Shown piece after piece: positions 31,004-48,319 of a stretch of 64,000 nucleotides of DNA (position 1 is its first letter; every line of letters begins with the position of its first letter). Source of the DNA: Candidatus Bathyarchaeota archaeon (lineage in GTDB: Archaea > Thermoproteota > Bathyarchaeia > Bathyarchaeales > Bathycorpusculaceae); assembly GCA_963782525.1 (NCBI GenBank), contig CAWAKC010000003.1, forward strand, positions 32,001-96,000. The letters run 5' to 3'. The position numbers and the translations under genes were made by a program. The notes below the pieces were generated by a model, which was given only the letters and a program-made list of their open reading frames with translations, searched no databases and had not been told where the DNA came from.

Positions 31004-31914
31004 AATTATGTAATTCAAGGATTAACGACAAACTAAGATAGAGTCTTAGCTGAAGACGCATAACCGTCTCATTACAGTATATTCAAGCTACGTATTAAAA
31101 TTTAATTTAGACGTATAATACTGTTTTACTTCTTTGAATTATCGGCTTGGGTCTGTCTCGAACGATTATCGTTGGCTTGCTTTTGTCTCGAACTATTGGC
31201 AGCATTTGCTTTTCTTGCTACGCTGCTCCTGTTTGGGGCGGAGGTTGCCGATCCTTCTGGTCTGTGTTGTTTACGCAAAAATATTCACCTAAATACTATA
31301 GCACTTTGTTCTTAATTTGTCTTACATTGAGTGCCCGAAACATGTACTTTTGAGTTTTGATTTATAGAATAACTGCCAAAATATTTAACTAAAAATAGCT
31401 GCTCTTGGAAAGCCTTAAGCGTTTACCTTAGTCAAATTACGTTAAAATCGCCAAAGTAAACAAAGTTAATCATGCCTCAGGCACTAAGTTTTCTATTAAA
31501 GTGCGTACAAAAGAAAACAAAGAAATATTCGCGGGATTTTGAACTTTTGTGCCTTGATAAAATCAAAGGCAAGTTAGTTATCTATAGCCAGAATTAATGG
31601 AGCTAGAGGCTGGGAGTTTCACCCAGCGTCTATGACTTTGCAAGTCATCGTCTGCTCTCGACCACCCTAGCATTAATGGAGCCGTACAAGAACCGTTTTG
31701 GCAACACATGATATTAAGGATTATTCCGAAATAAGATATTGAAAAAAAGGAGTTTATCTTATACCAGCTATCCAGGAAAAGATAGACGGAATACAAGAAT
31801 AACCTATGAATTAAAAAGTACATAAACATGGAACGCGCAACAGTTTTTTATGAAGTATTTGGCAAACTAAGGCACCCTTGATTAGATGAAGCTTATATTT
31901 GGAGATCATTATCA

Positions 31915-32307
31915 GTGATATGGTTGCAAATGTGTGCATTTCAAATAGAAAAGTGCCAAGTAGTTTGGTCAAAAGATGCTTCATCCGAAAACGATAGACA
32001 GTCCATGGTGAAAGCATTAAGAGGCATGTCGGTTGAAATCCAAGAAGCTGTGGAGTTCACCAAGAAGTATAGCGAAATAAGAATGAATGAAGTTAAGTTC
32101 TGGCTTAGCGCAGGCACTGAAATTGACTATACTCTGTCTATTTATTATGATTTTCATGCAGCAGCATGGGGTATGCTTCTTGAGGAAATGGATGCAAAAA
32201 ATGGGTCCCCTAAAGTCGTGGGCGAAATTGCCTGCATGGAACCTATGACCTTTCGCTTTATTGAGCAAGAGAGTATTCTTAAAACTGAACCCTTTTCTAT
32301 CCCTTAA
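31915..32307 (+). CDS. Hypothetical protein
   Basis: 130-aa ORF with normal composition; no motif recognised. Confidence 0.5.
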   Translation: MIWLQMCAFQIEKCQVVWSKDASSENDRQSMVKALRGMSVEIQEAVEFTKKYSEIRMNEVKFWLSAGTEIDYTLSIYYDFHAAAWGMLLEEMDAKNGSPKVVGEIACMEPMTFRFIEQESILKTEPFSIP

Positions 32308-32639
32308 TTATTTCTGGTCGACTTTAACCACAAGGCGTAATAAGATTTAGCATATCGACTATCTATAGCCCTTTTCCAGACCTCAAGGCCTGCCCTAGTC
32401 TTAAGAATTTAATAATTTAAAAATTGCTAGAGACTTGTTGTATTTCTGAACGACTTCATCAAATTTCTTTTGTGACAGAAATATTCCTCAGAGTTTTTGT
32501 CTACGCTTTGCTAATAAACTGTAGTGACTGTTAATTTAGCATTCGTTATTCTTTTTTGGTTTAAGGAACAACTTAAAACCATCCATCATTCACGTAACGA
32601 ATAAAAATAGTGGGCAGGCTCTTCGACAAGTAACTCTAA

Positions 32640-32813
32640 CTATTCAAGTTCTTCACTTGAAACAAGAAACACTGGATACTCTTGTGAACCAGCTGCTTTG
32701 TTACCGGTGTTTGTGTGACCTTTCATACATCTCATTCCGTATCTTGTTTTAGTTTCATTTTCCCAAACCTTTTCAGTTGATCCACCACATATTGGGCACC
32801 TAAAATCTTTCAT
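32640..32813 (-). CDS. 57-aa zinc-finger microprotein (absent from the ORF track)
   Basis: GGTGA RBS, then MKDFRCPICGGS...RCMKGH...EELE (CxxC...CxxxH). Confidence 0.6.
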   Translation of the reverse strand: MKDFRCPICGGSTEKVWENETKTRYGMRCMKGHTNTGNKAAGSQEYPVFLVSSEELE

Positions 32814-33094
32814 ATATTTTCACCAAAACCGAAATTTTTAAGGATAAACAAATAGTCGCTGTTTTTCTCCAAGTTCTTCCGCTCAGTATAAACGTATTGT
32901 TGGCTTGTTTCTTTAAGCCTTCCTGTCGTTTTTTCTCTCTTCTTTGTGGGACTTAGAATGTTTTTGAAGTTAATCAAAGATAGAAATCCGGCGTTTGTGC
33001 GTCGCAATTCCGGTATGGGTTCTCTTAACTCTATTAATTTTAATTGTTTTGAGCTCTATGACTTTAAAGTAAAATTTTTACCTATGCCAACTGC

Positions 33095-33739
33095 CTACCA
33101 TTCGTCTCTTTTGCTTATTTCTTCCTGTTTTTGATCTTGTTCTATTTCACGATAAATATTTTTTGCGGAAGATGTAACAACCGTTAGATCTGTACCTGCA
33201 ACACTTTTCACAGTTGGAATTTTCACCAATCTTTCTTCTCTAGTTTTTTGTACATATTGAACAGCCATTTCTTTAGAGGTGAAATTTAGCTTTTCACCAG
33301 AAGACCACATCTCATACATTTCCACCCTAAACAAGTATTCCTCTGCACCAATTCCCTTCATATCCACGATTAAAAGAAACTCAAAAGTGTCATTTAGTAG
33401 AGTACTTTGAGGTATGCTAATTGTTGTTGAATTGAGCAGGTGCTCTTGAAAATATAGATCTAAGTTAACTTTTGAAAAAGATGCTTTTGAAGGCAATAGG
33501 CTAAAGTCAACTTTAAAGGCTAACTCGTCTTCTTTGGTTGTCTCGGAGACGCTGTTGATCACTATTTCTTTTGTTGACTTAATTGGCTCTTTATTTCTGT
33601 TAATGTTGAATTGAAAAGAGAGGTCTTCAAGCGTTGATTGCTTTTTCTGCTTAACATTAACTGATATTATCTCTCTTTTTTGCTGATTCTTAGATAATCT
33701 AACCATTCTCAAATCAACTAATTCATTTCTACGAGACAA
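33095..33739 (-). CDS. Hypothetical protein with a beta-sandwich-like core
   Basis: 214-aa ORF; no motif recognised. Confidence 0.55.
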   Translation of the reverse strand: MSRRNELVDLRMVRLSKNQQKREIISVNVKQKKQSTLEDLSFQFNINRNKEPIKSTKEIVINSVSETTKEDELAFKVDFSLLPSKASFSKVNLDLYFQEHLLNSTTISIPQSTLLNDTFEFLLIVDMKGIGAEEYLFRVEMYEMWSSGEKLNFTSKEMAVQYVQKTREERLVKIPTVKSVAGTDLTVVTSSAKNIYREIEQDQKQEEISKRDEW

Positions 33740-33973
33740 TATATTAGGCGATGTTTAATGGTGTATCTTCTGTCCAGTCTTGTAGATCAGTTTTGCCTGT
33801 TCCAGTAAAGTTATCGTCGCTTTTTCTTGTTTGTCCGGTCGGTTACCGTATTTTTAAGTAAATGCTTATTTTGTCCTTGTCTCAACATGTGATCAAAAGT
33901 TCAATCTGTAATTAAAGGTTAAATCCAACTCAACAATAATAAAGCGTTGAAAAAGTCACGGTGAAATGAAATT

Positions 33974-34291
33974 ATGGACTTAGCGGTCGAGCTTAAAAAA
34001 CTTCAGGGCAAGCGTTTGACGACTATTTACCAAAACAAACCTTTTGAAATTACCCAAGTTTCAAATGACCAAATAACTCTCAAAACGTCCAAAGAATCAC
34101 GTCACCCTATAACCATGAAAGAAATAAGACTTGCCTGGAACCATTTAGAAAAATGTAAAAAATTAACTCGTTCAGAAGTGCGCGCTTTGGGAGATTCTGA
34201 AATTAACCCTACTTATGTAATGGCTATTCTTGCGAGCCTGTCCGGAGTTACTCACAGTCTTGGGCCACTCATATTAAGGCTCCCTGAATAA
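33974..34291 (+). CDS. Hypothetical protein
   Basis: 105-aa ORF preceded by GGTGA. Confidence 0.55.
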   Translation: MDLAVELKKLQGKRLTTIYQNKPFEITQVSNDQITLKTSKESRHPITMKEIRLAWNHLEKCKKLTRSEVRALGDSEINPTYVMAILASLSGVTHSLGPLILRLPE

Positions 34292-34569
34292 CATGCTTGT
34301 GACTGTTTCTTAAATCCAGCACAGCAGCGCCCAACGGGTTCTTTGGCTGGATGGAAATCTGCTTTGGATTTAGAAACAGCCAACCCTACAACAACCAGAA
34401 CGTAGGCCCACAAGTGTTACCCACCCTAAGTTCAGTTTCGGCACCCAACCAAGGCAGCTAAGGTTACGGATACGGCTAGTGGTCCTGCATGAAAAGATAA
34501 TAATCCTTTAAAATTCATTCCAAGGAACCTTTTCGTAATCCTTTTGGCTTGTTTATTCTTTTCTGTTTT

Positions 34570-34810
34570 CGAGCGACCGTCGAGTTCCAAGAATACAAAA
34601 CAGAGGTCACAGTTATGGTCCTATTGGGCCACAAAACAACAGCTTACCTATGGCTCTGCGTTCAATTAGCCCGTATCTGCTTCCGCGGAGCACCAAAAAA
34701 ATACATCAGTCTCTGGGTTACAAATCGGGAAGAAGAATCAAAAGCAGTCGAAGGCGGATTTGAATACGTTTAGAATAGCAACAGATGGAGCAAGCCTTTA
34801 CCGACGAGCA
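34570..34810 (+). pseudogene. Tyrosine integrase C-terminal remnant
   Basis: VMVLLGHK...AVEGGFEYV, paralogous to 35017..35355. Catalytic Tyr appears lost; boundaries approximate. Confidence 0.6.
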
Positions 34811-34955
34811 GACACAACAGCAACAACCATAATCGGGCACGACTAAAAACCGAAAACCAAAATAATATCGCCCTCGGATAACAAATTCTGGCAAGCGACT
34901 AAAAGCCGATATAATCATCGACACTGGTCGCTAGACCACAAGAAAGCATGTATGT

Positions 34956-34978
34956 GCGGTCGTAGTCTAGTTTGGTCT
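34956..34978 (+). repeat. Second att-like copy of the tRNA-Gly 5' end
   Basis: GCGGTCGTAGTCTAGTTTGGTCT is identical to 58573-58595 and lies between two convergent integrase remnants. Confidence 0.85.
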
Positions 34979-35016
34979 TAGACTTCAGTGTCGATGTCAC
35001 CACTGGCATTTCTTGT

Positions 35017-35355
35017 TTATCTGCGTTCATACGAGAATATCCTCTTTTTGTATATTTTTACTCCCGGTTCCCAATCAGTGTCGTAAGAATAGCCATCATT
35101 AGTCAGCTTCAATGCTTCCTCAAGTGTCCTTGCAACAGCAGATACCCAATTCTCCTGACCTGTAGCGGCGGCAGCTTTAACTAAGTCAACGTACAATTGC
35201 GCGCTTGACCAGCTTTTATGTCCCAAAACAACCATAACAACCGCCAAGCTTTTTGTTGCAATGTAAATATCAGTGCCTTTCTTGTACCGCAAAGTATGGA
35301 AGTGAATCTTGCGCAACCGCGTATTTCCAGTGCGTATTATAATTCGTTTACGCAT
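35017..35355 (-). pseudogene. Tyrosine integrase C-terminal fragment
   Basis: HFHTLR, LGHKS and AQLYV catalytic motifs. N-terminal part deleted and fused to a GNAT fragment. Confidence 0.8.
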
Positions 35356-35729
35356 GCGCGATATTTCGGGTGAACAACTAAGCGGCTAATCAAGCTGATT
35401 TGAGCGTTAACTTCAAACATATTCATCTTTGGTAGAGCTAAGCGACGTCCAAAACAGGATGGCGAAGGATAACAATAAACGATCACTCCGCAGAGCTCAT
35501 TGCCACGCATTAACCTAAAGAAGTGCCTAGCGACTGATGTGTTATGTCCGCGGTAGTGGAAAGTGGCGAGTTTTAGCCAATCTTCCCGGGTGCCGACTTC
35601 AACTCTCATTTCTTTAATTAGGCTGCATTCGCTGGCTTTTGCGGATAGATATTTTATGTCGATTTCTTCTCCAAACCGCTTAATCACAAACACAGAAGGC
35701 GAAAGATCCTCAACTAGGTCGCTATGAGT
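35356..35729 (-). pseudogene. Internal fragment of a second ABC-ATPase/GNAT gene
   Basis: FHYRGH, ELCGVIVY, SRLVVHPKYR, collinear with the middle of 42589..44040. Confidence 0.85.
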
Positions 35730-35790
35730 ACTGTGTTCTTAATGTGTCTTAGCTTTTTTCTGGTTTTAAGTTTAAATTTTTGTAAATTTG

Positions 35791-35884
35791 AGATGTGCTT
35801 AATACATTAAGCGAATCCCCTTTTTGCCTTGGAAAATAACTATTGCGGGCTCGCTGGGAGTCGTTTAAACTATTAGGCGAATCC
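35791..35884. repeat. Two 28-bp imperfect palindromes left of the oxidase cluster
   Basis: 35791-35818 AGATGTGCTTAATACATTAAGCGAATCC and 35857-35884 GGAGTCGTTTAAACTATTAGGCGAATCC. Confidence 0.75.
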
Positions 35885-35990
35885 TGAATAAATTTGGGGC
35901 AAACCTGGGCAAACCTTCTCCCAATAGGTGAACCTGACTGGACTTAACCCCGAATAGGCATGGTCCATATACTGCAGCATGCGCTTAACT

Positions 35991-36434
35991 TTAGCTAAAG
36001 ATAAGATGTAGTGGATAATAGGCGATGCCAAGTCCGAGGGTTATTATCCAGATTGTTAGGATTTCCCACATCAACTTTTTCCGCGGCGCGCAGAACCGCG
36101 TTTCGCTAGATTCTCCCAACGCCCACTTGCCAACTAGCCAAATGCCAAGAGAAATTGTTACCAAACCTATGACGCCGTGAACAACTCCTAAAAGTGCAAC
36201 AACATTGAAGTCTTCCAACATTTCCGCTACTACCCGAACAAAAGAAGGCCCCATGTGAGCAATCGTTAGCAAGGTAGCAATCATGACGACAACCATCATG
36301 GTGTTGCCATGCCAAACAAACTTCTTTCGCCTTTGAAGAAAAATGCTTAGAATTATTAACAAACTTAAGACGGCAACTAAAATGATCAGATTTGCCTGCG
36401 ACATCCATTCATGAACCTCATTATAAGTTACCAT
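35991..36434 (-). CDS. DUF420-like four-TM protein, possible oxidase assembly factor
   Basis: RRKKFVWHGNTM, VVHG..G, WIITLGLGIAYY. Divergent from ccmF. Confidence 0.6.
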   Translation of the reverse strand: MVTYNEVHEWMSQANLIILVAVLSLLIILSIFLQRRKKFVWHGNTMMVVVMIATLLTIAHMGPSFVRVVAEMLEDFNVVALLGVVHGVIGLVTISLGIWLVGKWALGESSETRFCAPRKKLMWEILTIWIITLGLGIAYYPLHLIFS

Positions 36435-36801
36435 CCTTCAATCCTCGTCTTTGACTAATTAGTTTAAAAAACAATAAAACAGTTACTATCTAACCTGTTT
36501 TACACGTCATTTAAAAAAAAACTATACTTTGTCAAAGCCCACTACCAGCCCATTATGTTTAGCAATATGTTCTCAAAATTCTTTTTCTAGTCTCTTGTTT
36601 ATTCGCAGAATTCTACGATTAACCTGGAACCGCTGGACTAAGTTGTCTCAAGACTAAAGCCCAAATCTTACTGCCGTTAAAATGAAATCCCCGTTGTAGC
36701 TTTGGCCGTTGTTTTCCTTCAGTTTTCCTTGGATAGAAAAGCTGACAATAATTTTAAATAAGAATTCAGCTAAGCACATTTCTATAACTCTGGAATTCAA
36801 T

Positions 36802-38703
36802 ATGGACTTTGAAGTATTTTTTCTGCTCGCGGCCAGTTTGTTGCTCTTATTAGACATTGCTCTCTTGTCAACCATGAAATTAACTGCTAAACTAAAAAGA
36901 CAGTACATCCTTTTCGCCGCTTTTTCCATATTTGCCTTAATAATAACATCTTACGCGATGCTTCTGCAAGCTTTCATTGGCAACGATTTTTCTCTTGTTG
37001 GGGTGTACTCTTCCAGCTCCTCCAGTGCTTCTTTGTTTTCAAAAATTTACTCCAGTTGGGCTGGAGCTGGGGGCTCGATGCTTTTCTTAACAGTTCTGCT
37101 AAGCATATTTTACTTTATATTAAGAATTATAGCTTTCAAAAAACCCAACAAATTCAACACAATCACCTGTCAGATCTTCGGTGTGGTCCTCTTTGTTTTC
37201 ATAATTGTGTGTTTGCTAAGAAACCCATTCGAACGTTTTCCCACGGTTCCAGCGGAAGGAATTGGTCTCAACCCACAGTTGCAAAGTGTATGGATGGCGA
37301 TTCACCCACCAATAGTATTTTCAGCTTATGCCTTCGCGGTTTTGACCTTTGCGTTGACGATAGCAAGTATCAAGACAGATAGAGAACTTGATGACTCAAA
37401 ACTATTCAAAGCTTCAACCTACGCAGCTTGGTTACTTCTCACAATTGGGATAGCTCTTGGTGGACTTTGGGCTTACGAAGTCTTAGGGTGGGGTGGATAC
37501 TGGGCTTGGGATCCAGTTGAAACAGCTTCTCTGTTGCCTTGGCTTTTTCTAGTGGCGTATTTCGTAGTGAAAAATATTTCCAATGACAAGAAGAGCTTAA
37601 CACGAGAATTAATGATTATGATAACATTTGCCAGCCTAGTTTTCTTGAGTGCCCTAACCCGTGGAGGATTGACTCAATCAGTCCATTCTTATGCAGTATC
37701 GGCAATTGGTCCCATAATGCTTACATTTGCGGTGGGGATGGTTGTTTATTTCTTCTATGTGGCAAAAAACAAAAGAAAGCCTCTCTTCCAACTGGAAGTT
37801 AATAGGGCTTCTTTGTCGTCTCGTTCTTACTATCTGGGTTTCTGGGCGCTGATTCTCATAGCCGTCGTCTGCCTAGTGGGGCTGGCTTTTCCAGGTTTTG
37901 CCTATAGCTATTGGACCTACCCGTTTGTCGTTTTATTCGTCGTGGCTTTGATCGGTTACAGCTTCAAAGAGAAGACGCATTACGTTCGTCAACTCCTAAT
38001 AGTGGCTATTTCGTTAGTCGCGGGAGTAGCTATCTCGCTGATTGGATTTGCATCTGTAAATATCCTTGTCACATTTACAGTTCCTCTTTTACTGACTGCG
38101 TTTTTTTGCCTTATTTATAAACTGGCTAGAACTATTCGTCGGAGATCTCTACTTGGACAAAGCATATTCGCGTTAGCTGTAATTGTTTTACTCTTGGGTG
38201 TTTTTATGAGTGCGGGAGCAAAAACAGTAGTCACCTTAAACGACGTGAAAATTAATACGCCCCAAAAAGCTATGCAATTCGATATCGTGGTTACGGGTAT
38301 ACATATTGAAAACAGTACGATGCAGGTTTACAATTCACAAGCCAATTCTGTTATCCCGGAATATTCGATTATTAAAGCCGATGTCACAATGCGAGATTCT
38401 GATAGAATCTATCAAGGAAGCCTTTCTGCTTCCTTGTACCCAAACTATGGGTTGGTGATTAAGCCTTTAATTATTACGACAGAGACTGGTGATCTTTATG
38501 TCCATATAGAGTTCACGGACTCGCTTTACAATACTTTAATGCAAGCATCAAGCGGCAACAGTGTTGCGCCCAATGAAGTGGCAATTTCGGTTCAAAACAG
38601 TCCGCTGATCTACTTAGTCTGGGCAGGTGTTGTGCTCATGGCAATCGCCATATTAATTCAGTTCGCGAGCGATCTTTCTTCACAAAAAGAGTGGCGCTAC
38701 TAA
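36802..38703 (+). CDS. ccmF: Cytochrome c biogenesis heme lyase CcmF
   Basis: GIGLNPQLQ, MAIHPP, WAYEVLGWGGYWAWDPVETASLLPWL, LTRGG..SVHSY. ATG 36802 preferred. Confidence 0.92.
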   Translation: MDFEVFFLLAASLLLLLDIALLSTMKLTAKLKRQYILFAAFSIFALIITSYAMLLQAFIGNDFSLVGVYSSSSSSASLFSKIYSSWAGAGGSMLFLTVLLSIFYFILRIIAFKKPNKFNTITCQIFGVVLFVFIIVCLLRNPFERFPTVPAEGIGLNPQLQSVWMAIHPPIVFSAYAFAVLTFALTIASIKTDRELDDSKLFKASTYAAWLLLTIGIALGGLWAYEVLGWGGYWAWDPVETASLLPWLFLVAYFVVKNISNDKKSLTRELMIMITFASLVFLSALTRGGLTQSVHSYAVSAIGPIMLTFAVGMVVYFFYVAKNKRKPLFQLEVNRASLSSRSYYLGFWALILIAVVCLVGLAFPGFAYSYWTYPFVVLFVVALIGYSFKEKTHYVRQLLIVAISLVAGVAISLIGFASVNILVTFTVPLLLTAFFCLIYKLARTIRRRSLLGQSIFALAVIVLLLGVFMSAGAKTVVTLNDVKINTPQKAMQFDIVVTGIHIENSTMQVYNSQANSVIPEYSIIKADVTMRDSDRIYQGSLSASLYPNYGLVIKPLIITTETGDLYVHIEFTDSLYNTLMQASSGNSVAPNEVAISVQNSPLIYLVWAGVVLMAIAILIQFASDLSSQKEWRY

Positions 38704-38912
38704 GAATGTTGTTGGTTATCGAAGCTTATGTTCTGAATATACCTCAGTGTAATTAATGCAACAACGCTAACAAATTATTAGCTAATTTCACCGAGCATAC
38801 ATTATTGAGTTACAAAGTAAGCGCTTAATTAGATATGCTGTTGCTAACTTGTTCTAGCATAGTTTTAAAAAGCGATCGCAACAAAAGTACATTCGGAAAT
38901 TAGGGGTTTTTC

Positions 38913-40355
38913 ATGGCTGAGGCAGAGGCAACAAAAGCAGTAGTTACTAATGGGTTAGAGCCTGCTGATCTTAAGAGTGCGGACTCGGTGGCTAAGTATT
39001 GGCTTTATTCTGCTGTCCTTTGGTTCCCCATTTTTGCAACATTTGGAATGATAATGGCAATAAAGTTTTTTGTTCCAACGTTTCTTGTCGATTCTGCCTT
39101 CGATACATTTGGTAGAATCAGACCCGCCCACGTCAATGGACTGCTTTTCGGTTTCTTATCTTCAGGCCTAATAGGCGCAATGTACTACGTGGCTCCGAGA
39201 TTATCCCACGTTTCTCTATACAAGCCAATTCTCGGAAAAATTTCTGCAGTGTTGTGGAATGTCGGAGTATTGGCGGGAGTTCTCTTGATCATGAGTGGAG
39301 ACACACAAGCCCGAGAATACGCGGAATTTCCCTGGATAATAGATGTAGTGATTATGATTACATTGATCATCATTGGCATTACAATAATTGGCACAATCAT
39401 AAAAAGAAAAGAACGCAAACTCTACGTTAGCTTGTGGTTCTTTGCAGCCATATTTCTCTGGTTTCCCATAGTGTACTTTATCGGAAACGTGATGTGGCGA
39501 CCTCCATCTGGAGCGCTTTTCGGCTTGACCGATGCCATAGTCAACTGGTTTTACGGACACAACGTTTTGGGACTCTGGTTCACTCCATTCGGATTAGCCC
39601 TATGGTACTATTTCATACCTAAACTCTCAAAACGAGCTCTTTACAGCGTAACTCTATCTTTGATTAGCTTCTTTGCTCTGGCATTCTTTTACACCGGTGT
39701 AGGAGGGCATCACCTGCTACAGTCTTCAATTCCGGAATGGTTAAAAACTATAGCCGTTGCAACGAGCGGTCTGATGATGATTTCTGTTTTGACGTTTGCT
39801 ACGAACATTGGAATGACCCTTCGAGGCGCTTGGCACTCTGTTTGGAGTAATGTACCCTTACGGTTCATTGTTTTCGGCTTCATCAACTACATACTTGTTT
39901 CAATTCAGGGAACTTTCCAAGCGTTTCGTGATATGAACTTGTACTTGCATTACTCACAATGGCCTGTGATGCATTCGCATTTAGCGTTGTATGGTTCTTT
40001 TGCAATTACGATAATGGGGATGATGTATTTTTTGGTGCCTCGCCTCTCAGGAAGAAAACTCTGGAACAAAAAACTAATGGATGTCAGTTGGTGGCTAACC
40101 TTATTGGGTTTTATAATATTCATGGCCGGAATGATGCTAGCCGGATTAGTTGCAAACGCTAGCTGGTACACCCATCAGACTATCGTTCAAGCTTTACCAA
40201 CATTGACACCTTACTTAATTGTCAGAGCCATTGGTGGCGGCATAGTTGTTGTTTCCGCTTTCCTTTTCGCGATTGATATCATTATGACTATTTTTTCAAA
40301 ACCTTTGTCATCTCTTGAAAATGCAGAAACAATTGGAGGTGTGCGGAAAGAATGA
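38913..40355 (+). CDS. ccoN: cbb3-type cytochrome c oxidase subunit I
   Basis: FGRIRPAHVN, QAREYAE, NWFYGHNVLG, FFYTGVGGHHL and MHSHLALYG contain all six His ligands plus the helix VII Tyr. Confidence 0.9.
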   Translation: MAEAEATKAVVTNGLEPADLKSADSVAKYWLYSAVLWFPIFATFGMIMAIKFFVPTFLVDSAFDTFGRIRPAHVNGLLFGFLSSGLIGAMYYVAPRLSHVSLYKPILGKISAVLWNVGVLAGVLLIMSGDTQAREYAEFPWIIDVVIMITLIIIGITIIGTIIKRKERKLYVSLWFFAAIFLWFPIVYFIGNVMWRPPSGALFGLTDAIVNWFYGHNVLGLWFTPFGLALWYYFIPKLSKRALYSVTLSLISFFALAFFYTGVGGHHLLQSSIPEWLKTIAVATSGLMMISVLTFATNIGMTLRGAWHSVWSNVPLRFIVFGFINYILVSIQGTFQAFRDMNLYLHYSQWPVMHSHLALYGSFAITIMGMMYFLVPRLSGRKLWNKKLMDVSWWLTLLGFIIFMAGMMLAGLVANASWYTHQTIVQALPTLTPYLIVRAIGGGIVVVSAFLFAIDIIMTIFSKPLSSLENAETIGGVRKE

Positions 40356-41965
40356 GTGATGCTGAAAAGAAGTTTGAGGAAGAATTGGAGAGGCTAGAAC
40401 GAACTGCGGAGAAGAAAGTCAGAATAATAAAGAAGAAAACTCAATTTAAGAATTTGTTTCCGCTTGTTGCAGGTGGAGTAGCTGTCTTTCTTCTCATGGT
40501 TAGTATGGTTGTAGTTGCTCCCTACATGTTTCTTTTAGACATTCCTCCAAGCGATACCGCTCACGTGTATACAACGCAGGAAGCAGAAGGAAGAAACTTA
40601 TTCATGAGTTTGGGATGTTTCTACTGCCATTCTCAACAAGTCAGAGCTAGCGATTGGGGAATCGGCAATGTCTCTCAAGAAGGAGATTACGTGTACGATA
40701 GCCCAGCCGCGTTGGGTACAGAGAGGACGGGTCCAGATCTTGCTCAAATCGGTGGAATGCGCCCAACCCTGTGGCAGCAAATGCACGATAGGGACCCACG
40801 CAGTGTAAGCCCAGGTTCTTTAATGCCGAATTTCGGATTCTTAAGTGATGAGCAGATAGATGCTCTAGTAGCTTATATTCAAAATCTAGGTCAAGAAAAC
40901 CTCCAAGTTGAAGCTTCAATCACTAATGGTTCTTCTTTTCACCCTGCCGTACCAGACGAGTATGTGAACGCGACTAACCAGTTTACGCCAATGTTGATGA
41001 CTGCGTTGGCACAATATGACGTTGAAAATGACGCTTACAATGGAAATGCTACGTTTGGTGACCAATGGGGAGTCCTTTTTGATGCTGCTAAAGCTGATTA
41101 TACACAGTTTTGCCTGTCTTGCCATGGATGTTCAGGAAATGCAGAAGGCCCATATGCTCGGCATGTAGCGACTCAGCCTGCAAATCTGCATGAACGCATA
41201 GCTACATTTCCAGGTGACAGTTATGACATCTGGCGAGTGAGCGGCGGGGTACCTGGAACAGCCATGCCTGAATGGAGCCTTACACTTAATGCTACTGAAA
41301 TTAGGCTTTTAGCAGCTTATGAGTTGAGCTTTGTTTTTGGTTCCGCTAGAACAATTTCTGGCGATATCTCTGATGCTGAAGGAGACAACTTTGCTCAAAC
41401 AGTTCTTAACGTGCCGCCCATAGGTGGAACGATGCAGGATTACCAGTCGGGTAAAAGTCTATACACCTTGTACTGTGCACAATGCCACGGGAACGATGGG
41501 CAGGGAGATGGACCTGCCTCAAGTAAGGTTCAAGGTGGCTACATTGTCCCTGAACCCGCCAACTTTACCGAATCCGGAAACGACTTCATGTACTATGGAC
41601 GCTACGTTTGGAAAGTACAACAAGGCGTCGAAACAACAAATATGCCACCCTGGAAATATGCAATGACGGATAACGAAATTTACCAATTAGTCTTCTATGT
41701 GCAAAGCTTCTCAAAAGCCAGTGACTACAATACGAAATGGGCACCGCAGTATACTGATCAATATGCAAGGGACCTCAAAGGTGGCCCTGTCCAGTCTGGG
41801 TTGTTCACAAATCTTGAAACAAATCCAGTAGGAGCCTTAGTTGCTTTCATAGCTGTTCTTCTTTGGGATCGTAATTTTGAAAAACTACGAAATCTTTACC
41901 AAAATGCAAGGATTCAAATGCCAACCAAAGCTTTGAAATTATGGAGGTTAATCCCCTGGACATAG
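40352..41965 (+). CDS. ccoO: CcoO fused to two further cytochrome c domains (triheme)
   Basis: GCFYCHSQQVR, GTERTGPDL, SLMP, then CLSCH..AMP and CAQCH..NMP. Confidence 0.88.
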   Translation: MSDAEKKFEEELERLERTAEKKVRIIKKKTQFKNLFPLVAGGVAVFLLMVSMVVVAPYMFLLDIPPSDTAHVYTTQEAEGRNLFMSLGCFYCHSQQVRASDWGIGNVSQEGDYVYDSPAALGTERTGPDLAQIGGMRPTLWQQMHDRDPRSVSPGSLMPNFGFLSDEQIDALVAYIQNLGQENLQVEASITNGSSFHPAVPDEYVNATNQFTPMLMTALAQYDVENDAYNGNATFGDQWGVLFDAAKADYTQFCLSCHGCSGNAEGPYARHVATQPANLHERIATFPGDSYDIWRVSGGVPGTAMPEWSLTLNATEIRLLAAYELSFVFGSARTISGDISDAEGDNFAQTVLNVPPIGGTMQDYQSGKSLYTLYCAQCHGNDGQGDGPASSKVQGGYIVPEPANFTESGNDFMYYGRYVWKVQQGVETTNMPPWKYAMTDNEIYQLVFYVQSFSKASDYNTKWAPQYTDQYARDLKGGPVQSGLFTNLETNPVGALVAFIAVLLWDRNFEKLRNLYQNARIQMPTKALKLWRLIPWT

Positions 41966-41967
41966 AT

Positions 41968-42108
41968 ATGTTGATCTATATTATCGGTGCATTAGGAATC
42001 ACATTCATAACTGCTGGTTTTGTTGTCTGGAGTTTTGTAACCAAAGCGTTTGAAGGTAATGAAAATTTGAGGTTTAAGCCGCTTGAGGAGGATGAAACCG
42101 AGCAATGA
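41968..42108 (+). CDS. CcoS/FixS-like assembly microprotein (absent from the ORF track)
   Basis: MLIYIIGALGITFITAGFVVWSFVTKAFEGNENLRFKPLEEDETEQ: TM, then W..F, then acidic tail. Stop overlaps the next ATG. Start could be 41941 or 41956. Confidence 0.65.
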   Translation: MLIYIIGALGITFITAGFVVWSFVTKAFEGNENLRFKPLEEDETEQ

Positions 42109-42398
42109 GCTGGGACCATTTAGCTGCGACTGCCCGAATTGTTTTTGTGAATCCCACATATGCCTACTTAGCGCTGGTATTTGTTGGAGCAGCAGTGCTT
42201 GTCATTTACTTGATTGTTAGAAGTTCGGACGAGTTTTCGGTGAAAGACACTGAAGCGAACTCTGAAGACTTCGCTGGTGAAATACGTGACTCAAAGGGAC
42301 CTGTAACCATGTGGCTTTGGGCAGTTTACATTGCTTTAGCAGTATGGGCAATAGCTTATTTAATTCAGCACTGGGGAGAATTCGCTAGTTTTCCATAA
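42105..42398 (+). CDS. Two-TM protein resembling the CcoP N-terminal membrane domain
   Basis: EDFAGEIRDSKGPVTMWLWAVYIALAVWAIAY parallels the CcoP DGIxExDNPLPxWW..F..TI.FA..Y pattern. Confidence 0.6.
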   Translation: MSWDHLAATARIVFVNPTYAYLALVFVGAAVLVIYLIVRSSDEFSVKDTEANSEDFAGEIRDSKGPVTMWLWAVYIALAVWAIAYLIQHWGEFASFP

Positions 42399-42498
42399 AA
42401 AACCTTCATTAGGCATCGCCTAGACTTGAGGCATTGTTCTTCGCAAAATTTCTATTTTAAAAATATTAATAGTTTTCTTATATGTAGCACGCTATAGG

Positions 42499-42526
42499 GG
42501 ATTCGCTTAATATATTAGGCGAATCC
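42499..42526. repeat. 28-bp near-perfect palindrome right of the oxidase cluster
   Basis: GGATTCGCTTAATATATTAGGCGAATCC (13 of 14 pairs). The following ~40 bp is homologous to 35819-35860. Confidence 0.8.
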
Positions 42527-42588
42527 TTATTTTTTCTTGGAAAATATTGGTGGGGGGCTCGCTAGGATGTGGACTTGCGGCTGCAACA

Positions 42589-44040
42589 TTAAAATTCAAC
42601 TAACCTTCCTTCCAGAAGAGGTATTACTTTTGTTTGAAGTAGTAGCGCAACAGTTTTAATTAATTTGGCTAATTTTTCAGAGTCAGCAGCTTCAATGTAT
42701 TTAACATAATCCGCTGTTATTCCATAAGGCATATGTCTACTAGACGTTACTTCTTTTTTCAGGCGTGGCTGCGGATTCTTAAGCAAAACCTCGCGAACAC
42801 TACAGAGTTGCTTAGTATCCAAAGTATCCAGTTTAAGTTTAACGTAATGTTGGCTTCCCAGCAGCTGAACATCAAACCCCAGAGAAGATAATGTCTGTGA
42901 GATCTTAACAACAGATTTCACCTCTGTCTGTTGAATAATGCGGACCATACCTGCTTTCTCTGCAAAAGGCGAATACTTAGCCATAACCGCAATCAACTCA
43001 ACAAAATCCGTACCAACCAAAGGAAGTGACTCACGAATTAACTTCGCACCTAAACCAACAGTTCGGTATTTTGGATGAATAACTACACGGTTAATAGTGC
43101 TTAGTTGCTGGTTGATTTCTTGCATTGACATTCGAGGAAGAACCATACGTCTCCCAAAACACGCGGGCGGTGGATAAGTATATACTATAACTCCACATAG
43201 CTCCATCCCACGAGTTAGTCGGAAGATTTTCCGGACAACTGATGTTTTATGGCCGCGATAATGGAACCTGCAGAGTTTTTCCCAGTCTTGCCTGTTGCCC
43301 TCTTCAACTTTCATCTCTCGGATAAGGCTGCATTCATCCACGTGACTATTTGGGAAATATTCGATCTGAATTTCTTCCCCAAACCGCTTAACCACAAACA
43401 CAGAAGGCGAAAGATCCTCAATTAGGTCGCTGTGAGTTGTGGCGACAATTGCCGCTCTTCCTTGGGACCGTGTGATTTTCTGCAGGTTAAACGCAATTAT
43501 CTTTGCTGTGTCTCGGTCTAAGCAGGCTGCGAATTCATCCATAAGCCACCATTGCTTTTGGCTCTCGATGAGTTTGGCGATTCGGTAACGGTATTTCTGG
43601 CCATCACTGAGTTGACTGTAGGTGCGCAGGAAAAGAAAAGCATCATTCAACCCCACCTTACTTAGCAGCTCTATGCCTTGCTCAACAGTAGCGCCAACGG
43701 TTTCAATCAGTGGTTTTTCTGGGTCCACCTGGACCTCGCTTAGGTCGATTGCTTCTTCCCCCAAGTCTGCTCGAATGGCTCTTATCAAGACGCTTTTTCC
43801 GCTGCCACTATCGCCGGTGATGTAGACGATGTCTTTGGGTCCGATCTTTAGTTCAGCGTCTAAAACCTTGAATTTCCGGGTCTCATCGATGCCTAACCCG
43901 AAGGCTTCGGCGACAACTATGCTTCTAGGTGTTATCTTTGTGTTGGTTTCATAGCTGATGTTGAAGGTAAACTTGCCCGTGGTCTTATCGTATGTTCTTC
44001 TGCAGGCTCTTATTCTAAATCCTCGGCGTTTTCGTCTCAT
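42589..44040 (-). CDS. ABC-type ATPase fused to a GNAT (Mom-like) acyltransferase
   Basis: GDSGSGKS, LSDGQ, LMDEF, ATTH; then FHY, INRVVIHPKYRTVGLG, FAEKAGM. No TM partner. Possible frameshift in the last ~10 codons. Confidence 0.8.
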   Translation of the reverse strand: MRRKRRGFRIRACRRTYDKTTGKFTFNISYETNTKITPRSIVVAEAFGLGIDETRKFKVLDAELKIGPKDIVYITGDSGSGKSVLIRAIRADLGEEAIDLSEVQVDPEKPLIETVGATVEQGIELLSKVGLNDAFLFLRTYSQLSDGQKYRYRIAKLIESQKQWWLMDEFAACLDRDTAKIIAFNLQKITRSQGRAAIVATTHSDLIEDLSPSVFVVKRFGEEIQIEYFPNSHVDECSLIREMKVEEGNRQDWEKLCRFHYRGHKTSVVRKIFRLTRGMELCGVIVYTYPPPACFGRRMVLPRMSMQEINQQLSTINRVVIHPKYRTVGLGAKLIRESLPLVGTDFVELIAVMAKYSPFAEKAGMVRIIQQTEVKSVVKISQTLSSLGFDVQLLGSQHYVKLKLDTLDTKQLCSVREVLLKNPQPRLKKEVTSSRHMPYGITADYVKYIEAADSEKLAKLIKTVALLLQTKVIPLLEGRLVEF

Positions 44041-44985
44041 CTTGGCACCATCGTTACAAATTGTTCAGGAACAAGCTCGCAGGTTGCAAAGGCTGCTAGA
44101 GCAGTAGCCCAAAAGACGTCGTCGTGAGTGCCTTGGGGGTGGCTAAAAGCTAAGCCGCCATCCTTTCGCAGTGCGAAGCGTTCAACGTTAAATTCATTGC
44201 AGATGTCTATGCGGTAGGGTTTATCCCAACTTAGTAGTGGATAGAAGAAGCGTTTGTCTTACATTCTTTTTTTGAGAATACTTGCCATCTCGCTTTTTTT
44301 TGGTGAACTAAAGATTACCCCTTCAGCGTTATCGATTCCGGCGTTTTCCATATCTGCAATGAAGCTTGGACCTTCCCTGGTTATGTCCACTCGAATCTTG
44401 TTGAAGCCGCCCCAGCGATCCTGCAAGGCTTTGATGTAACCCAGAACGTAGGCGTCATAGGTTGGGTGCGGGAAAATCTTTAGATGCCTAAGCAACAGCT
44501 TTTGATCGACTCTCCCACCACACTTAGGACATAGAAATCCCGTGTTTGCGCAGGATCCAACCCAGCATAGAATTCACCTTCAAACTCCTCTTCAGGGTCA
44601 AACTCCGCTAAATCCTCGCCGCAGTTCTTGGTTGTCCCAATACATGAGGAGATTAGGCTTTGGGATAGCCAGACGTCTTCATCCTCAGCCCACTCTGCCT
44701 CCATTTCACGTCTCCATCTGGAGGGATCGTCACGCATTTGTTTTTTGATCTTCTCAAGAATAATCGTTTTCAGTGGACCGTTGGGTTCTTGGGCACGTTC
44801 CCAGGTTATGTGGTGGCGTGCAAAGTCATCGAAGTCCTTGTTGTTGCAAATCCGATAGAACAAGCTATCCGTGTTCCAGGGTGTGCTTGTGCAGATAAAC
44901 TTCCCGTTAGTGGTGCCTAAGGTGAAGAGTGCAGCGTCGTAGAGATCCTCGGCGTTTGGGATGAAGTTGAATTTCGTCAGCGTAG
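44037..44985 (-). pseudogene. Terminase large subunit remnant
   Basis: Walker B (YADE), coupling motif STPW, WRREMEAEW, nuclease AGLD.A, VDITREG, HDDVFWATALA. Several frameshifts; Walker A region missing; stop overlaps the ABC-GNAT start. Confidence 0.8.
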
Positions 44986-45086
44986 ACACAGTACAAATGA
45001 TTATTAGAAACTGAAAGAAAGTGTGGCACATATTATAAGAACACATTAATTGGGCGAAATATCACAGTTATTTGAGGTAAAATGAA

Positions 45087-45290
45087 ATGCCGATAGTTCA
45101 AGTTTCTGTTTGGGAAGGAATGACTCCTGAGAATAAGAAAAAAACAGTTGAAGGGATAACTAAAGTTTTTGAAGAAATGGGGGTTCCTAAGGACGCAGTT
45201 CATATTGTCATCTATGAAGCGCCAAAAAATAATTGGGCAACGGGTGGACAACTGCATTCAGAAAGACACGCCCAAACACCCTCGCTGTAA
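45087..45290 (+). CDS. 4-oxalocrotonate tautomerase family protein
   Basis: N-terminal MP, 67 aa, NWATGG. Confidence 0.9.
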   Translation: MPIVQVSVWEGMTPENKKKTVEGITKVFEEMGVPKDAVHIVIYEAPKNNWATGGQLHSERHAQTPSL

Positions 45291-45400
45291 TCCGCATAAT
45301 TAGCGCGCGGCCAAATTCAAAAAGTATAACTAAACTTCAGGAAACCTTCAATAGTTCTTAGATGCCTTCATCATCGAAAAAGAGGTCCTTGGAATCTTTT

Positions 45401-46972
45401 TTATTTGCCAGAATTCTCAGGATCCTTAGAGACTTCAGCTTGCTCACTGTTGATTCCTCGCCATCTAATTCTGTAGCCCAGCATCTTCAACACATTGGCT
45501 GAGTCATCGATGCCTTCTTCCTCGATGATTTTTGCTGCTTCCTTAAGGGGCATTTTCCCCGATTGACTAATGGCTACTCTGATTCTATCGCCGATTTGCA
45601 GAAGCTTTTCATTGCTAACCAAAATATCCGCCAAAGCAACATAGCCGAAAGGCGGACTAACAGCTAAGAAGGCTCTTGCCGCTTCGGCAGAAACGCCAAT
45701 CCTAGCCGCGAATTCCCTAAAAGCAACCACTGGTTCAGTAAATCTAATAGACAAACCCTCCAGAAGCTTAATCTCCTTAGATTTGACATCTTCAAACTTC
45801 GTTTCCAGATACCGCAGAATCGGAGCCAAAGAAATTTTGTCGCGGTAATAAATCAAGTCAAGCTGCGGACGTTTTTCCAAGGCAGAGAGTTTTTCACATG
45901 CCAAAGCTTCATTGACCAAAAGCAGCATCTTCACTTCCACCTGCTTTAACTTCTCTATCTTTCGCAGCAAGTACTCTTCTGTCCAGAACCCAACAATCTC
46001 CAAGTAAATTTTGATGCTGGCTTTTTCAAGAGAGAAATCAGGAATGATCACTTGTTTTCCGGCAGTTACAGGTTCAGGTTCTCTTTTTAGCACCCAGCCA
46101 GTGGTTAAGGCTTGAAACTTTGAGGCAAAATCCTCTTCGATAGAGCTATCATAAGACAGAGTCGGCAAATATGGTTTCGTTAGCAGAGGTGCGTGTTTTT
46201 GGTTTTCAAGTTTGAAGTCGCAGATTTCGTTTGTAAACCTCCAAAGAACCTTCGCCCTAACAGTCCATTCAGGGTTAGCTATGATGATGGGCAGCAGCTT
46301 GGCTATGCCCACGCCATACCTTCGAGTCAACTTAAACAGGCTACCTGGACCATCTATTTTCACCCACAACCCATTATCTTGGTAAACTTCATAGATCAAC
46401 CCAAACTTCTTTATTGCATGGAAGAGGTCTTGCCAATTGCCAGACGCCGTGAAACTAAGCTCTGTGGCATCAAAAAGCAACGTTTGAGTTAAACCCAAAT
46501 TATACTCACCCAACAAGTCCGATGCTGAAGGCGCAAAAAACTTTTCAAGAATTAACTCGCCATCCAAATCCGAGTAAAAATCCTCCTCAACAGCCTCTAC
46601 CTCAAGAGCCATCTTAGAAGCTACGATCTCCAGGATTTTTCGTCGGTTCTCAGAAGTGGTAGGCAAGCCAAATTGTTCGGTGGCTTGAAATATCTTTCTT
46701 CTCAAATCAACCGGGTCAACTTTGCATTGGCAAACAAAGGTGCTTTTTCGGTCAAGCAACAAAGATAAAGCCCTGACAAAGCGGTACTCGTAGCCTTTGT
46801 CTTCCAGCTCAGCGACCAAAGATTTTAGAACTTTCTTCTTTTCTCCAATATGTGACTTGTATGCTTCAATGAGAATATTCGTAGCTTCCTCGTTGCTGCT
46901 GGAAGATTTGGCGTAGCGTGGCTGAATCTCGCCTTTCCTCTTCCACACTGAAAGCAAGTTGCTTGGAAGCAC
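45401..46972 (-). CDS. DUF790/Bax1-like endonuclease
   Basis: MLPSNLL, YNLGLTQTLLF, DGPGSLF..TRRYG, YDSSIE, REPEP, IPDF, LEIVGFWTEEYL. Confidence 0.85.
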   Translation of the reverse strand: MLPSNLLSVWKRKGEIQPRYAKSSSSNEEATNILIEAYKSHIGEKKKVLKSLVAELEDKGYEYRFVRALSLLLDRKSTFVCQCKVDPVDLRRKIFQATEQFGLPTTSENRRKILEIVASKMALEVEAVEEDFYSDLDGELILEKFFAPSASDLLGEYNLGLTQTLLFDATELSFTASGNWQDLFHAIKKFGLIYEVYQDNGLWVKIDGPGSLFKLTRRYGVGIAKLLPIIIANPEWTVRAKVLWRFTNEICDFKLENQKHAPLLTKPYLPTLSYDSSIEEDFASKFQALTTGWVLKREPEPVTAGKQVIIPDFSLEKASIKIYLEIVGFWTEEYLLRKIEKLKQVEVKMLLLVNEALACEKLSALEKRPQLDLIYYRDKISLAPILRYLETKFEDVKSKEIKLLEGLSIRFTEPVVAFREFAARIGVSAEAARAFLAVSPPFGYVALADILVSNEKLLQIGDRIRVAISQSGKMPLKEAAKIIEEEGIDDSANVLKMLGYRIRWRGINSEQAEVSKDPENSGK

Positions 46973-48319
46973 TTATGCTGCGCCTCGTATTTTTTGGTGG
47001 CGCCTACGACTTGTATCCACTTCCATGGTTTCTTTGGAAATTATCTCAATTAGTCGAGCTAATTTGCCTTCTTTTTTCCTGAGCAAGCGTCCGAGTCTTT
47101 GGACATATTCTCTGTTGCTGCCTGTTCCACCCAAAACTAAACCTACTGAAGCATCGGGCACATCCACCCCCTCGTCGAGAACCTGAGACGTAACAACCAC
47201 AGGGTATTTGCCGCTCCCAAAGTTTGATAGTATTTCTCGGCGTTCCTCTCTTGAAGTTTGATACGTTATTGCAGGAATTAGGAAACGCAGACTAATTCTG
47301 TAGACCAGGTCGTTGTAGAGAGTGAAAATCAGGATTTTCTCATTTTTGTAAGTGTCAAGTTGTTGGGATAGCACTTTTAGTTTTGCTTCTGAGTTGACTG
47401 CAGCTCTTATGGCTTTGTTTCTTGCGAGTAGTGCTTCACGTGCTTTTGGGTCTCTTCCTGTAGTCATTATGAACTTTTGGAAGTCAGCGGCCCTTCTTAA
47501 AGTAATTTTTCGCTGCTGAAGAAAGCTTCTAAAAATGTTCATTTGAGATTTGTATATTTGCTGTTCTTGGGGTGTTAATTCAACTGATATTTTCTCGTAT
47601 GTGTATGGCGAAAGATGCCCAGCAATTTCTTCGACGCCAACGGAATAGACTGGGTCGCCGACGAGTTGTGAAAGCAAAGAGTGTCTTTGATCGCTTCTTT
47701 CGTAAGTTGCTGTTAAGCCCATGCGGTATGGTGCAGTGTACATTTCAGCTATCTGTATGTAGCCTGTGGAGGCTAGATGATGAACTTCGTCAAAGATTAT
47801 TAGCATGAACTTGTTGCCTAGCTGTTCTGCGTGTATGTAGGCTGAATCATAAGTTGTAACAGTTACCATGCGCAGAGTGTTTTCACCTCCGCCTACGACA
47901 CCCGCTTCCAAGTTGAGGCATTCTTTGATGCGTTTTTTCCATTGATCAATTAGGTCCAAAGTGGGAACCACAATCAACGTCTGAACCTTCAACTGTTGAA
48001 TTGCTTTTAGGGCGATGAAAGTTTTTCCAGCTGCAGTAGGCAATACTAGAACTCCCCTGTTGCGTGCTTTGCACCAATTGTTCAAAGCCTCGTTCTGGTA
48101 ATCTCTTAGCTCAACATTACTTTTTTGTTGTTCAAGTGGCGGCAACATCGGAACATCATCTTGAACTTGAAGTTTGCTTTCAGCCAAGTATTCTAAAACG
48201 TCTCGGTAATGGTATGCCTTGATTCTGTAGCAGCCCACTCTTGGGTCCCATTTTCCGTATGGAGATCCCGCTTCGCCCTTCAAGAGAAGGGTGCCTTTGT
48301 CAAACCACAAACGAAGCAT
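46973..48319 (-). CDS. xpb: XPB/Rad25-like SF2 helicase
   Basis: LRDYQ, PTAAGKT, DEVH, GLTAT, DEGVDVP, QRLGRLLR. Adjacent to the Bax1-like gene. Confidence 0.85.
   Translation of the reverse strand: MLRLWFDKGTLLLKGEAGSPYGKWDPRVGCYRIKAYHYRDVLEYLAESKLQVQDDVPMLPPLEQQKSNVELRDYQNEALNNWCKARNRGVLVLPTAAGKTFIALKAIQQLKVQTLIVVPTLDLIDQWKKRIKECLNLEAGVVGGGENTLRMVTVTTYDSAYIHAEQLGNKFMLIIFDEVHHLASTGYIQIAEMYTAPYRMGLTATYERSDQRHSLLSQLVGDPVYSVGVEEIAGHLSPYTYEKISVELTPQEQQIYKSQMNIFRSFLQQRKITLRRAADFQKFIMTTGRDPKAREALLARNKAIRAAVNSEAKLKVLSQQLDTYKNEKILIFTLYNDLVYRISLRFLIPAITYQTSREERREILSNFGSGKYPVVVTSQVLDEGVDVPDASVGLVLGGTGSNREYVQRLGRLLRKKEGKLARLIEIISKETMEVDTSRRRHQKIRGAA

Follow-up and report, generated by a model that had tools for sequence, protein, structure and literature searches.

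Palindrome-bounded cassettes without an integrase, probably inserted at tRNA-Arg genes in Bathyarchaeia

Are the three 28-bp palindromes that bracket a cbb3-like oxidase gene cluster in a Candidatus Bathyarchaeota genome the ends of a mobile unit, and if so, where does such a unit insert? The locus lies in a stretch of 64,000 nucleotides (the window: contig CAWAKC010000003.1 of assembly GCA_963782525.1, positions 32,001 to 96,000 of the forward strand), for which a preliminary description had proposed an undescribed cassette system that loads cargo into integrative elements. We find that the palindromes are probably the ends of small cassettes that lack an integrase and are inserted, Campbell-fashion and site-specifically, at the 3' ends of tRNA-Arg genes in Bathyarchaeia, with the enzyme supplied in trans. 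Such cassettes share one architecture, recur in several genomes with variable cargo, encode no integrase in the open reading frames (ORFs) scanned, and have been transferred between genomes with their ends at tRNA-derived cores. The recombination would be site-specific and driven by a trans-acting enzyme, the 28-bp dyads (11-6-11) being the predicted binding sites of that enzyme or of an accessory protein.

Palindromes and a tRNA-Arg 3' end in the window

The repeated elements of the window are listed below; pal_a and pal_b are the palindromes at the two ends of a module.

33738-33751, + strand: 14-nt copy of the inner part of palindrome 3, without partner arm or core
35791-35818, + strand: palindrome 1 (pal_b type), AGATGTGCTTAATACATTAAGCGAATCC, left arm decayed; right end of a decayed element to the left
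35819-35846, + strand: spacer 1, 28 nt, with a T-run and a small TTTTSC..GGAAAA inverted repeat
35847-35860, + strand: core 1, 14 nt, GGGCTCGCTGGGAG, reverse complement of a tRNA-Arg 3' end
35857-35884, + strand: palindrome 2 (pal_a type), GGAGTCGTTTAAACTATTAGGCGAATCC, with centre AAACTATT; left end of the oxidase cassette
35885-35984, + strand: conserved flank after pal_a, AATAAATTTGGGGCAAACC ... GGACTTAACCCC
42499-42526, + strand: palindrome 3 (pal_b type), GGATTCGCTTAATATATTAGGCGAATCC; right end of the oxidase cassette
42527-42554, + strand: spacer 2, 28 nt
42555-42568, + strand: core 2, 14 nt, GGGCTCGCTAGGAT, with unrelated sequence beyond and no rest of the tRNA

All three sites of the preliminary description are present as read. 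Their arm, TTARGCGAATCC, has 4 matches in the window at up to one mismatch, as against 0.64 expected, and none of 100 shuffled sequences reached 4. The 14-mer at 33738-33751, possibly a relic half-site, was also confirmed, occurring twice in the window and never in 100 shuffles. The linker said to be repeated after the third site is part of a 68-nt direct repeat (35792-35859 and 42500-42567, 76% identical) that takes in site 1 or site 3 with 40 nt following each. The three sites and the repeated linker are not products of chance. Elsewhere in the 2.87-Mb genome the motif occurs only as a single unit (C3:200755-200849), making four in all, and a dispersed repeat of the repetitive extragenic palindromic type was therefore rejected. 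A known RNA family was rejected as well, Rfam giving no match (E up to 1) in 30000-48000.

Judged from its letters, the linker is a 28-nt spacer followed by a 14-nt stretch, which we call the core, that matches the 3' end of a tRNA-Arg gene. Core 1 spans the 3' strands of the acceptor and the T-stem (the genome's own tRNA-Arg(CCG) ends ...ATCCCAGCGGGC), and a tRNA 3' segment is thus directly repeated at both ends of the cassette, as in integrative elements. Palindrome 2, the left arm of which is the weaker, overlaps core 1 by 4 nt and so is fused to it. Palindrome 3 is perfect but for a single T.G and reads GGATTCGCTTA-ATATAT-TAGGCGAATCC, the 28-bp geometry of dif. The left joint of the cassette has the tandem form (palindrome 1-spacer-core|palindrome 2), with palindrome 1 placed like pal_b in the arrays of other genomes, and the right joint has the end form.

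Recurrence, cargo and exchange in other genomes

When prokaryotes were scanned at one genome per species with TCGYTTAANNNATTARGCRAATCC, 56 loci were returned, of which 45 are from Bathyarchaeota/Bathyarchaeia, 2 from Nitrososphaerales, 4 of Thermoplasmata type and 5 from bacteria. The palindrome stands in two contexts: either a spacer of 5-6, 27-28 or 47 nt leads from it to GGGCCCGCTGGGATTTGAACCC..., the reverse complement of a tRNA-Arg gene from its 3' end, or a 14-nt tRNA tail, GGGCCCGCTGGGAT, is fused straight onto its other arm. A tRNA-Arg 3'-end core (up to 3 mismatches) accompanies 44 of the 51 archaeal palindromes, as against 255 of 20000 random control positions, and none of the 5 bacterial ones. 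Among those 44 sites, the core abuts one arm at 15 and lies 5-47 nt past the other arm at 31 (both at 3; mirrored only at 2), and 13 of the 31 sites with a spacer belong to the 27-28-nt class. At many loci the core runs on into a full tRNA-Arg gene, with anticodons GCG, CCG, TCG, TCT and CCT as read by eye, the first three also called by ARAGORN.

The outer GGAT is conserved at nearly all Bathyarchaeia sites although the search pattern left it free, so the dyad is real. Centres differ by end, pal_a having mostly the centre of palindrome 2 and pal_b TACA, TGTA, TAAA, AACA or TATA. Cores ending in GCTGGGA, GGTGGGA and GATGGGA, from at least three types of tRNA-Arg, meet the palindrome at the same base, which argues for independent insertions into different tRNA-Arg genes. 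At up to one mismatch the palindrome is present in 15 of 401 genomes of the class and 9 of 41 in the window's genus (both counts including the window's genome), and in 3 of 12 in one sister genus, with 1 match for the control; this patchy distribution suits mobile DNA. A search with the 121-nt unit gave weak partial matches in 3 of 100 other genomes of the family. Among 2.9 million viral contigs no exact-pattern palindrome had a core, the single exact match lying inside an ORF. The junction pattern CCGNTGGGATTCGYTTAA returned 49 loci (16 archaeal, 33 bacterial), for which we estimate about 100 chance matches.

The preliminary description had suggested looking for paired sites around variable cargo in related genomes, and such pairs exist. 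In five Bathyarchaeia genomes the palindrome pattern (up to 2 mismatches, both strands) has 7-26 matches each, clustered in pairs, and the reversed pattern has none. The pairs delimit 12 two-ended modules of 0.75-6.8 kb, single or in tandem and all of the same polarity, built on the plan core|palindrome_a, cargo, palindrome_b-spacer-core, and on into a tRNA-Arg gene. Examples are (L, C and G number loci, contigs and genomes, G000 being the window's):

L157: module of 6.8 kb at tRNA-Arg(CCG)
L152: module of 3.9 kb at tRNA-Arg(GCG)
L160: module of 2.2 kb at tRNA-Arg(GCG)
L153: tandem modules of 0.75 and 3.3 kb at tRNA-Arg(GCG)

The same plan with a truncated tRNA is seen in L148, L150, L154 and others. 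Direct repeats of the tRNA 3' segment occur at both ends in L148 and in the four loci listed, and in those four the repeat completes an intact tRNA gene, which it does not in the window. Each module holds 1-5 genes, in both orientations and with regulators: PAS histidine kinases; an ABC ATPase with an ABC-2 permease and a PadR or HTH_10 regulator; an acyltransferase with a helix-turn-helix (HTH) protein; a 592-aa zinc-ribbon protein; a methyltransferase with Nramp; DUF1801; and small ORFs. In most modules the 3' ends of the outer genes face the palindromes. None of the 72 ORFs scanned in the array regions (the 12 modules and their near flanks) encodes an integrase.

Several of these cassettes are shared between genomes. 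The kinase cassette of G101 (L157 3980-10874) and that of G104 (L148 4106-7875) are 99.4-99.7% identical in three blocks (99-100% in a second comparison), as against 78% for the radical-SAM gene that flanks it in G101 and its counterpart in G104, which sits on another contig. At the left joint identity starts at TGGGATTCG, the cores to the left of this start differing at 2 positions (GGGCCCGCTGGGA vs GGGTCCGGTGGGA); at the right joint it ends after GGGCCCGCTGGG, where G101 continues into the tRNA and G104 into unrelated sequence. Identity therefore runs through both whole palindromes and stops in the tRNA-derived core, which indicates that the right core is borne by the cassette, that the left core is the target's, and that the exchange point lies within approximately TGGGA. 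The cassette of the 592-aa protein (G102 and G103, 97-98%) and a PadR/ABC cassette (three genomes, 89-90%) likewise have homology starting at the core and unrelated left flanks. Anchors, in turn, are not tied to one cassette: behind the radical-SAM flank (81%) stands a kinase cassette in one genome and in another an ABC/HTH cassette, and behind the anchor of lysyl-tRNA synthetase (LysRS) and tRNA-Arg(GCG) (76%) stands either a 592-aa-protein cassette or an ABC/PadR cassette.

No palindrome follows any of the four intact or contig-end tRNA-Arg genes of the window's own genome, so the palindrome arrives with the cassette. One of its contigs, C1, ends inside tRNA-Arg(CCG) (616317-616389), and another, C7, ends (412145-412164) 520 nt past the radical-SAM orthologue. 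Placed end to end, the two make up an intact tRNA-Arg(CCG) that has its CCA and a T-run but no palindrome, the assembly break falling exactly in the core; this would be the empty form of the site that is occupied in G101.

Three further features were seen at or near such sites. In L014, L020, L022, L062 and L066 (Thermoplasmata-type records and one of Paracaedibacteraceae) a related palindrome is followed by CGACCGGTCCA with no tRNA core, and these may form a separate family. A second type of joint (L148 7864-7890; L151, which is G103:C33 at about 5453-5465) has the same core followed by TCTCAG(A)CCC... and neither palindrome nor tRNA, which suggests another element family using the same target. 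The motif GTGARCC..GGACTTAACCCC (35925-35955 in the window; also in L060) follows palindrome_a in several loci, lies at L001 9385-9410 just upstream of a DUF772 transposase gene, and is possibly an insertion-sequence end.

Proposed insertion by an enzyme in trans and its alternatives

In the model that we favour, a free cassette would carry the joint palindrome_b-spacer-core|palindrome_a, with the core bases at which the G101/G104 identity ends, and would recombine within the few bases TGGGA(T) common to the tRNA T-stem, inserting in Campbell fashion. The tRNA would then be made whole by the core that the cassette brings, and its original tail, pushed away, would sit at the far joint, linked directly to palindrome_a. 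Further rounds of insertion would give tandem arrays. In the window, 35857-42554 would be one such cassette, with the oxidase genes as its cargo; palindrome 1 and spacer 1 would mark the end of an older element next to it, and the whole would be a relic array that has lost its anchoring tRNA body. On this model, related archaea of soil and peat likely stack such cassettes behind tRNA-Arg genes and exchange them between genomes.

Several observations weigh against the model. The window holds no tRNA-Arg gene, and neither of its cores is joined to a tRNA body. Of the 147 ORFs lying no more than 2 kb from the archaeal sites first found, a single one encodes an integrase, and no recombinase was identified. 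Among the 11 other Bathyarchaeota loci compared, 10 have the oxidase module with no palindrome within reach, and the module therefore has further ways of moving. Contigs from four sequencing runs (X1, X2, X20, X7) over 34500-44000 were only 90-97% relatives and hence uninformative; they contained neither a joint of 35860 to 42568 nor a circle joint, and the joints that they did list reflect ABC-GNAT paralogy. All genome comparisons rest on metagenome-assembled genomes, and homologous recombination between the conserved ends of about 40-90 nt would yield the same blocks of identity between genomes.

That last process could even be the whole explanation, the conserved ends acting as portable homology arms and the palindromes as terminators or operators of the cargo. 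Stretches of 40-90 nt, such as the ends share, may suffice for homologous recombination; in most modules the 3' ends of the outer genes face the palindromes, and among the terminator-like hairpins of 35500-43000 the strongest is site 3 (14 pairs, then ATTTTTTCTT), in a scan that does not model archaeal terminators and that reported neither site 1 nor site 2. A T-run is lacking, however, at palindrome 2 and in the short-spacer forms, and arm variants are uncompensated (GGATGCG opposite CGAATCC, for instance), which argues against an RNA hairpin. Nor does homology alone explain why the tRNA fragments of at least three tRNA-Arg types all meet palindrome_a at one and the same base, and we consider this account unlikely. 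Ordinary integrase-bearing elements at tRNA-Arg, since stripped of their integrase and most genes, would fit the integrase fragment that lies 440 nt from palindrome 1, the decayed mobile DNA that fills this part of the window, and the integrase loss after integration and tandem integration reported in archaea (PMC8371274, in part). Yet the cassettes are compact and complete in their genes, with near-identical copies in distant genomes; the 72 ORFs scanned in the array regions include no integrase; no exact-pattern palindrome with a core occurred in the viral contigs, and no palindrome at all at 80 ABC-GNAT provirus loci (below); no cognate integrase-bearing element with the same attachment (att) site turned up in the loci, the viral contigs or the ABC-GNAT proviruses, and this origin is quite improbable.

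The preliminary description had likened the sites to dif and pdif, at which a Xer-type recombinase would bind the 11-nt arms and exchange strands across the 6-nt centre, cutting and pasting from palindrome to palindrome. The 11-6-11 division of 28 bp is indeed the dif geometry of bacteria and archaea in the covered text of PMC8371274, the dyad is real and conserves its outer GGAT, and the ORF147-palindrome segment of locus L073 is inverted, as recombination between symmetric sites could give. But exchange at the centres needs matching centres, and those of the two ends differ; identity between genomes takes in both palindromes and ends in the core, at the palindrome edge; a fixed association with tRNA fragments is no property of dif; and 4 sites in the window's genome and 7-26 pattern matches in each of five others contrast with a dif that is single-copy (PMC8371274, as far as its text was covered). 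Exchange within the palindrome is thus unlikely.

If insertion is by an enzyme in trans, a candidate might have been the tyrosine recombinase of 443-501 aa whose gene directly precedes, and shares a strand with, tRNA-Arg(TCG) in L163 (3396-4869) and L170 (2731-4406), where a palindrome stands behind the tRNA, a layout resembling an integron platform. This integrase was rejected as the cassette enzyme: it has no close homologue in the window's genome (best 28-32%) and does not co-occur with the palindrome, as, among six genomes compared, G016 and G398 have the integrase family without the palindrome and G366, G456 and G462 the palindrome without the family, a further point that weighs against our model.

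The cassettes resemble several known systems in part. Cis-mobilizable elements (CIMEs) are att-flanked and carry no recombination genes, and like them, and like islands accreted in tandem at bacterial tRNA genes, the modules described here have att-like ends, lack recombination genes and can lie in tandem at one attachment site. Unlike CIMEs, they have no integrase-bearing parent with the same ends among the sequences searched, are far smaller (0.75-6.8 kb), numerous and widely shared, bear a conserved 28-bp dyad at their ends, and reside in archaea. With integron cassettes, including archaeal ones (10.1101/2022.02.06.479319, in part), they have in common small units arrayed at one anchor, imperfect palindromes between these, and contents that vary between relatives. 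In contrast to integrons, no intI or attI adjoins them, integrases being confined to the single flanking ORF noted above. They also differ in their sequence-conserved palindromes of 28 bp, in holding 1-5 genes in both orientations with their own regulators, and in the tRNA-Arg anchor; attC sites are longer than 28 bp and conserved in structure, and integron cassettes are mostly promoterless, with a single ORF and one orientation. As in pdif modules and Xer-dependent elements (for the geometry, PMC8371274, main text in part), 28-bp dyads of 11-6-11 bracket recombinase-free modules, but here the boundary falls in a tRNA-derived core, the end centres differ, and the palindromes are direct and of fixed polarity relative to the core. 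Like tRNA-targeting integrative elements (PMC8371274 and PMC6563490, both in part), the cassettes duplicate a tRNA 3' segment, restore the tRNA from the element and integrate in tandem, and they differ in having palindromic ends, an identity segment of only about 14-15 nt and no integrase of their own; the cryptic integrated elements of PMC6563490 are, in the text covered, defined by possessing one.

In line with the earlier suggestion that the system is undescribed, the portions of main text covered by our literature search (including PMC10848311, PMC11705971, PMC8371274 and PMC6563490) held nothing on palindrome-bounded cassettes at archaeal tRNA-Arg genes; the nearest topics there were archaeal integrons, archaeal tyrosine recombinases, thaumarchaeal integrated elements and bacterial CIMEs. 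A broader and more tentative reading is that tRNA-Arg genes serve as platforms of a gene-capture system in Bathyarchaeia of the window's genus, at which self-contained cassettes with a dyad and a 12-14-nt tRNA tail are inserted, stacked and exchanged across genera by a recombinase whose gene lies outside the cassette and away from the platform; this might be an independently arisen archaeal analogue, in function, of the integron, able to spread respiratory modules such as the cbb3-like oxidase. If the cassette model is true, it offers a concrete and testable route of gene gain in Bathyarchaeia, which are abundant uncultured archaea, including the spread of a haem-copper oxidase module among lineages. 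It would also account for orphan tRNA-Arg tails and for contig breaks at tRNA-Arg genes in these assemblies, and, given the recombinase, the short target (a tRNA tail and a 28-bp dyad) would make a compact archaeal system of site-specific integration.

The oxidase cassette and its surroundings

The cassette of the window holds a compact five-gene unit for a cbb3-like oxidase:

35991-36434, - strand: ORF147, small protein without Pfam or NCBIfam family that always accompanies the oxidase genes (cluster c2)
36709-38703, + strand: CcmF/NrfE/CcsA-like cytochrome c haem lyase, 664 aa, below NCBIfam cut-offs
38913-40355, + strand: CcoN-like haem-copper oxidase subunit I, 480 aa (PF00115, 7e-80; TIGR00780, 270 bits vs cut-off 583)
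40352-41965, + strand: fusion of CcoO/FixO with a CcoP-like multihaem cytochrome c, 537 aa
42105-42398, + strand: orf97, conserved last gene of the oxidase module (cluster c5)

All oxidase subunits score under the NCBIfam cut-offs, and no integrase is encoded between 35857 and 42554. The same five-gene set occurs in the 11 further Bathyarchaeota loci that were compared (of 80 returned, L068-L147), with CcoN 73-96% identical and different neighbours at each locus. The closest copy, L068 (92%), is free of palindromes and homologous only over 35985-42442, just within the palindromes of the window. L073 alone of the 11 has the same joint, core|palindrome|flank|ORF147, and it is here that the segment from ORF147 to the palindrome is inverted relative to the oxidase genes. 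The nearest CcoN sequences outside Bathyarchaeota (52-58% identity) are in records of Chloroflexia, Dehalococcoidales, Syntrophales, Desulfosporosinus, Methanoperedens and Methanolobus.

On either side of the array lie the following:

35017-35355, - strand: C-terminal fragment of a tyrosine recombinase, 112 aa (PF00589, 26.9 bits vs cut-off 27.1), outside the cassette
35337-35729, - strand: truncated and diverged ABC-GNAT gene fragment, 71% identical to 43064-43437
42589-44040, - strand: complete gene for an ABC-ATPase/GNAT fusion, from a provirus-like element; a copy on contig C6 is 83% identical
44037-44996, - strand: broken gene for a large terminase; its C6 counterpart (84% identical) scores PF03237

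The recombinase fragment has its nearest relative in the genome at C6:36992-37249 (38% identical over 90 aa). To the left of the cassette it is accompanied by the truncated ABC-GNAT gene and by remnants related to a primase-bearing element on C5; on the right, the full ABC-GNAT gene and broken terminase are related to a provirus-like region on C6. Since the anchoring tRNA body is absent and decayed provirus-like elements lie around it, the array is a relic within a mobile-DNA hotspot. The ABC-GNAT flanks are not a duplicated backbone, of which the preliminary description had allowed that the sites might be a passive part: the copy on the left (35359-35729) is truncated and shares no more than 71% identity with the one on the right. 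No palindrome (up to 3 mismatches) was found within 10 kb of any of 80 ABC-GNAT/terminase loci of other genomes; this backbone was therefore rejected as the carrier of the palindromes, and its adjacency to the array is incidental here. Of the proposed cassette system that loads integrative elements, the mobile cassettes with ends at these sites were borne out, but not the target, which is the tRNA-Arg 3' end that had been hidden in the linker. Relatives of the backbone align to the window only down to 42611-42612, and hence give no empty-site comparator.

The block of terminase, winged HTH and ABC-GNAT genes (42589-45046 in the window; L002 6068-9253; L223-L302) is multi-copy and a provirus-like hallmark across Bathyarchaeia. 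On C6, which carries an ABC-GNAT copy, an integrase adjoins tRNA-Pro(GGG), and 18-23-nt copies of the tail of this tRNA occur on C10 and at the start of C7. Between the tRNA-Gly gene of the window and the cassette lies a decayed region with a DDE transposase gene (22974-23825) and an IS200-like Y1 transposase gene (28154-28606). A 32-nt match at 58648-58679 was rejected as the right attachment site (attR) of an element at tRNA-Gly, as it belongs to a separate intron-containing tRNA (58573-58678); the latter is missed by default ARAGORN, found by Rfam, and called tRNA-Gln(TTG) under an intron search. Rfam also matches a DUF3800-X RNA at 50456-50527, with 67 bits as against a gathering score of 38.2.

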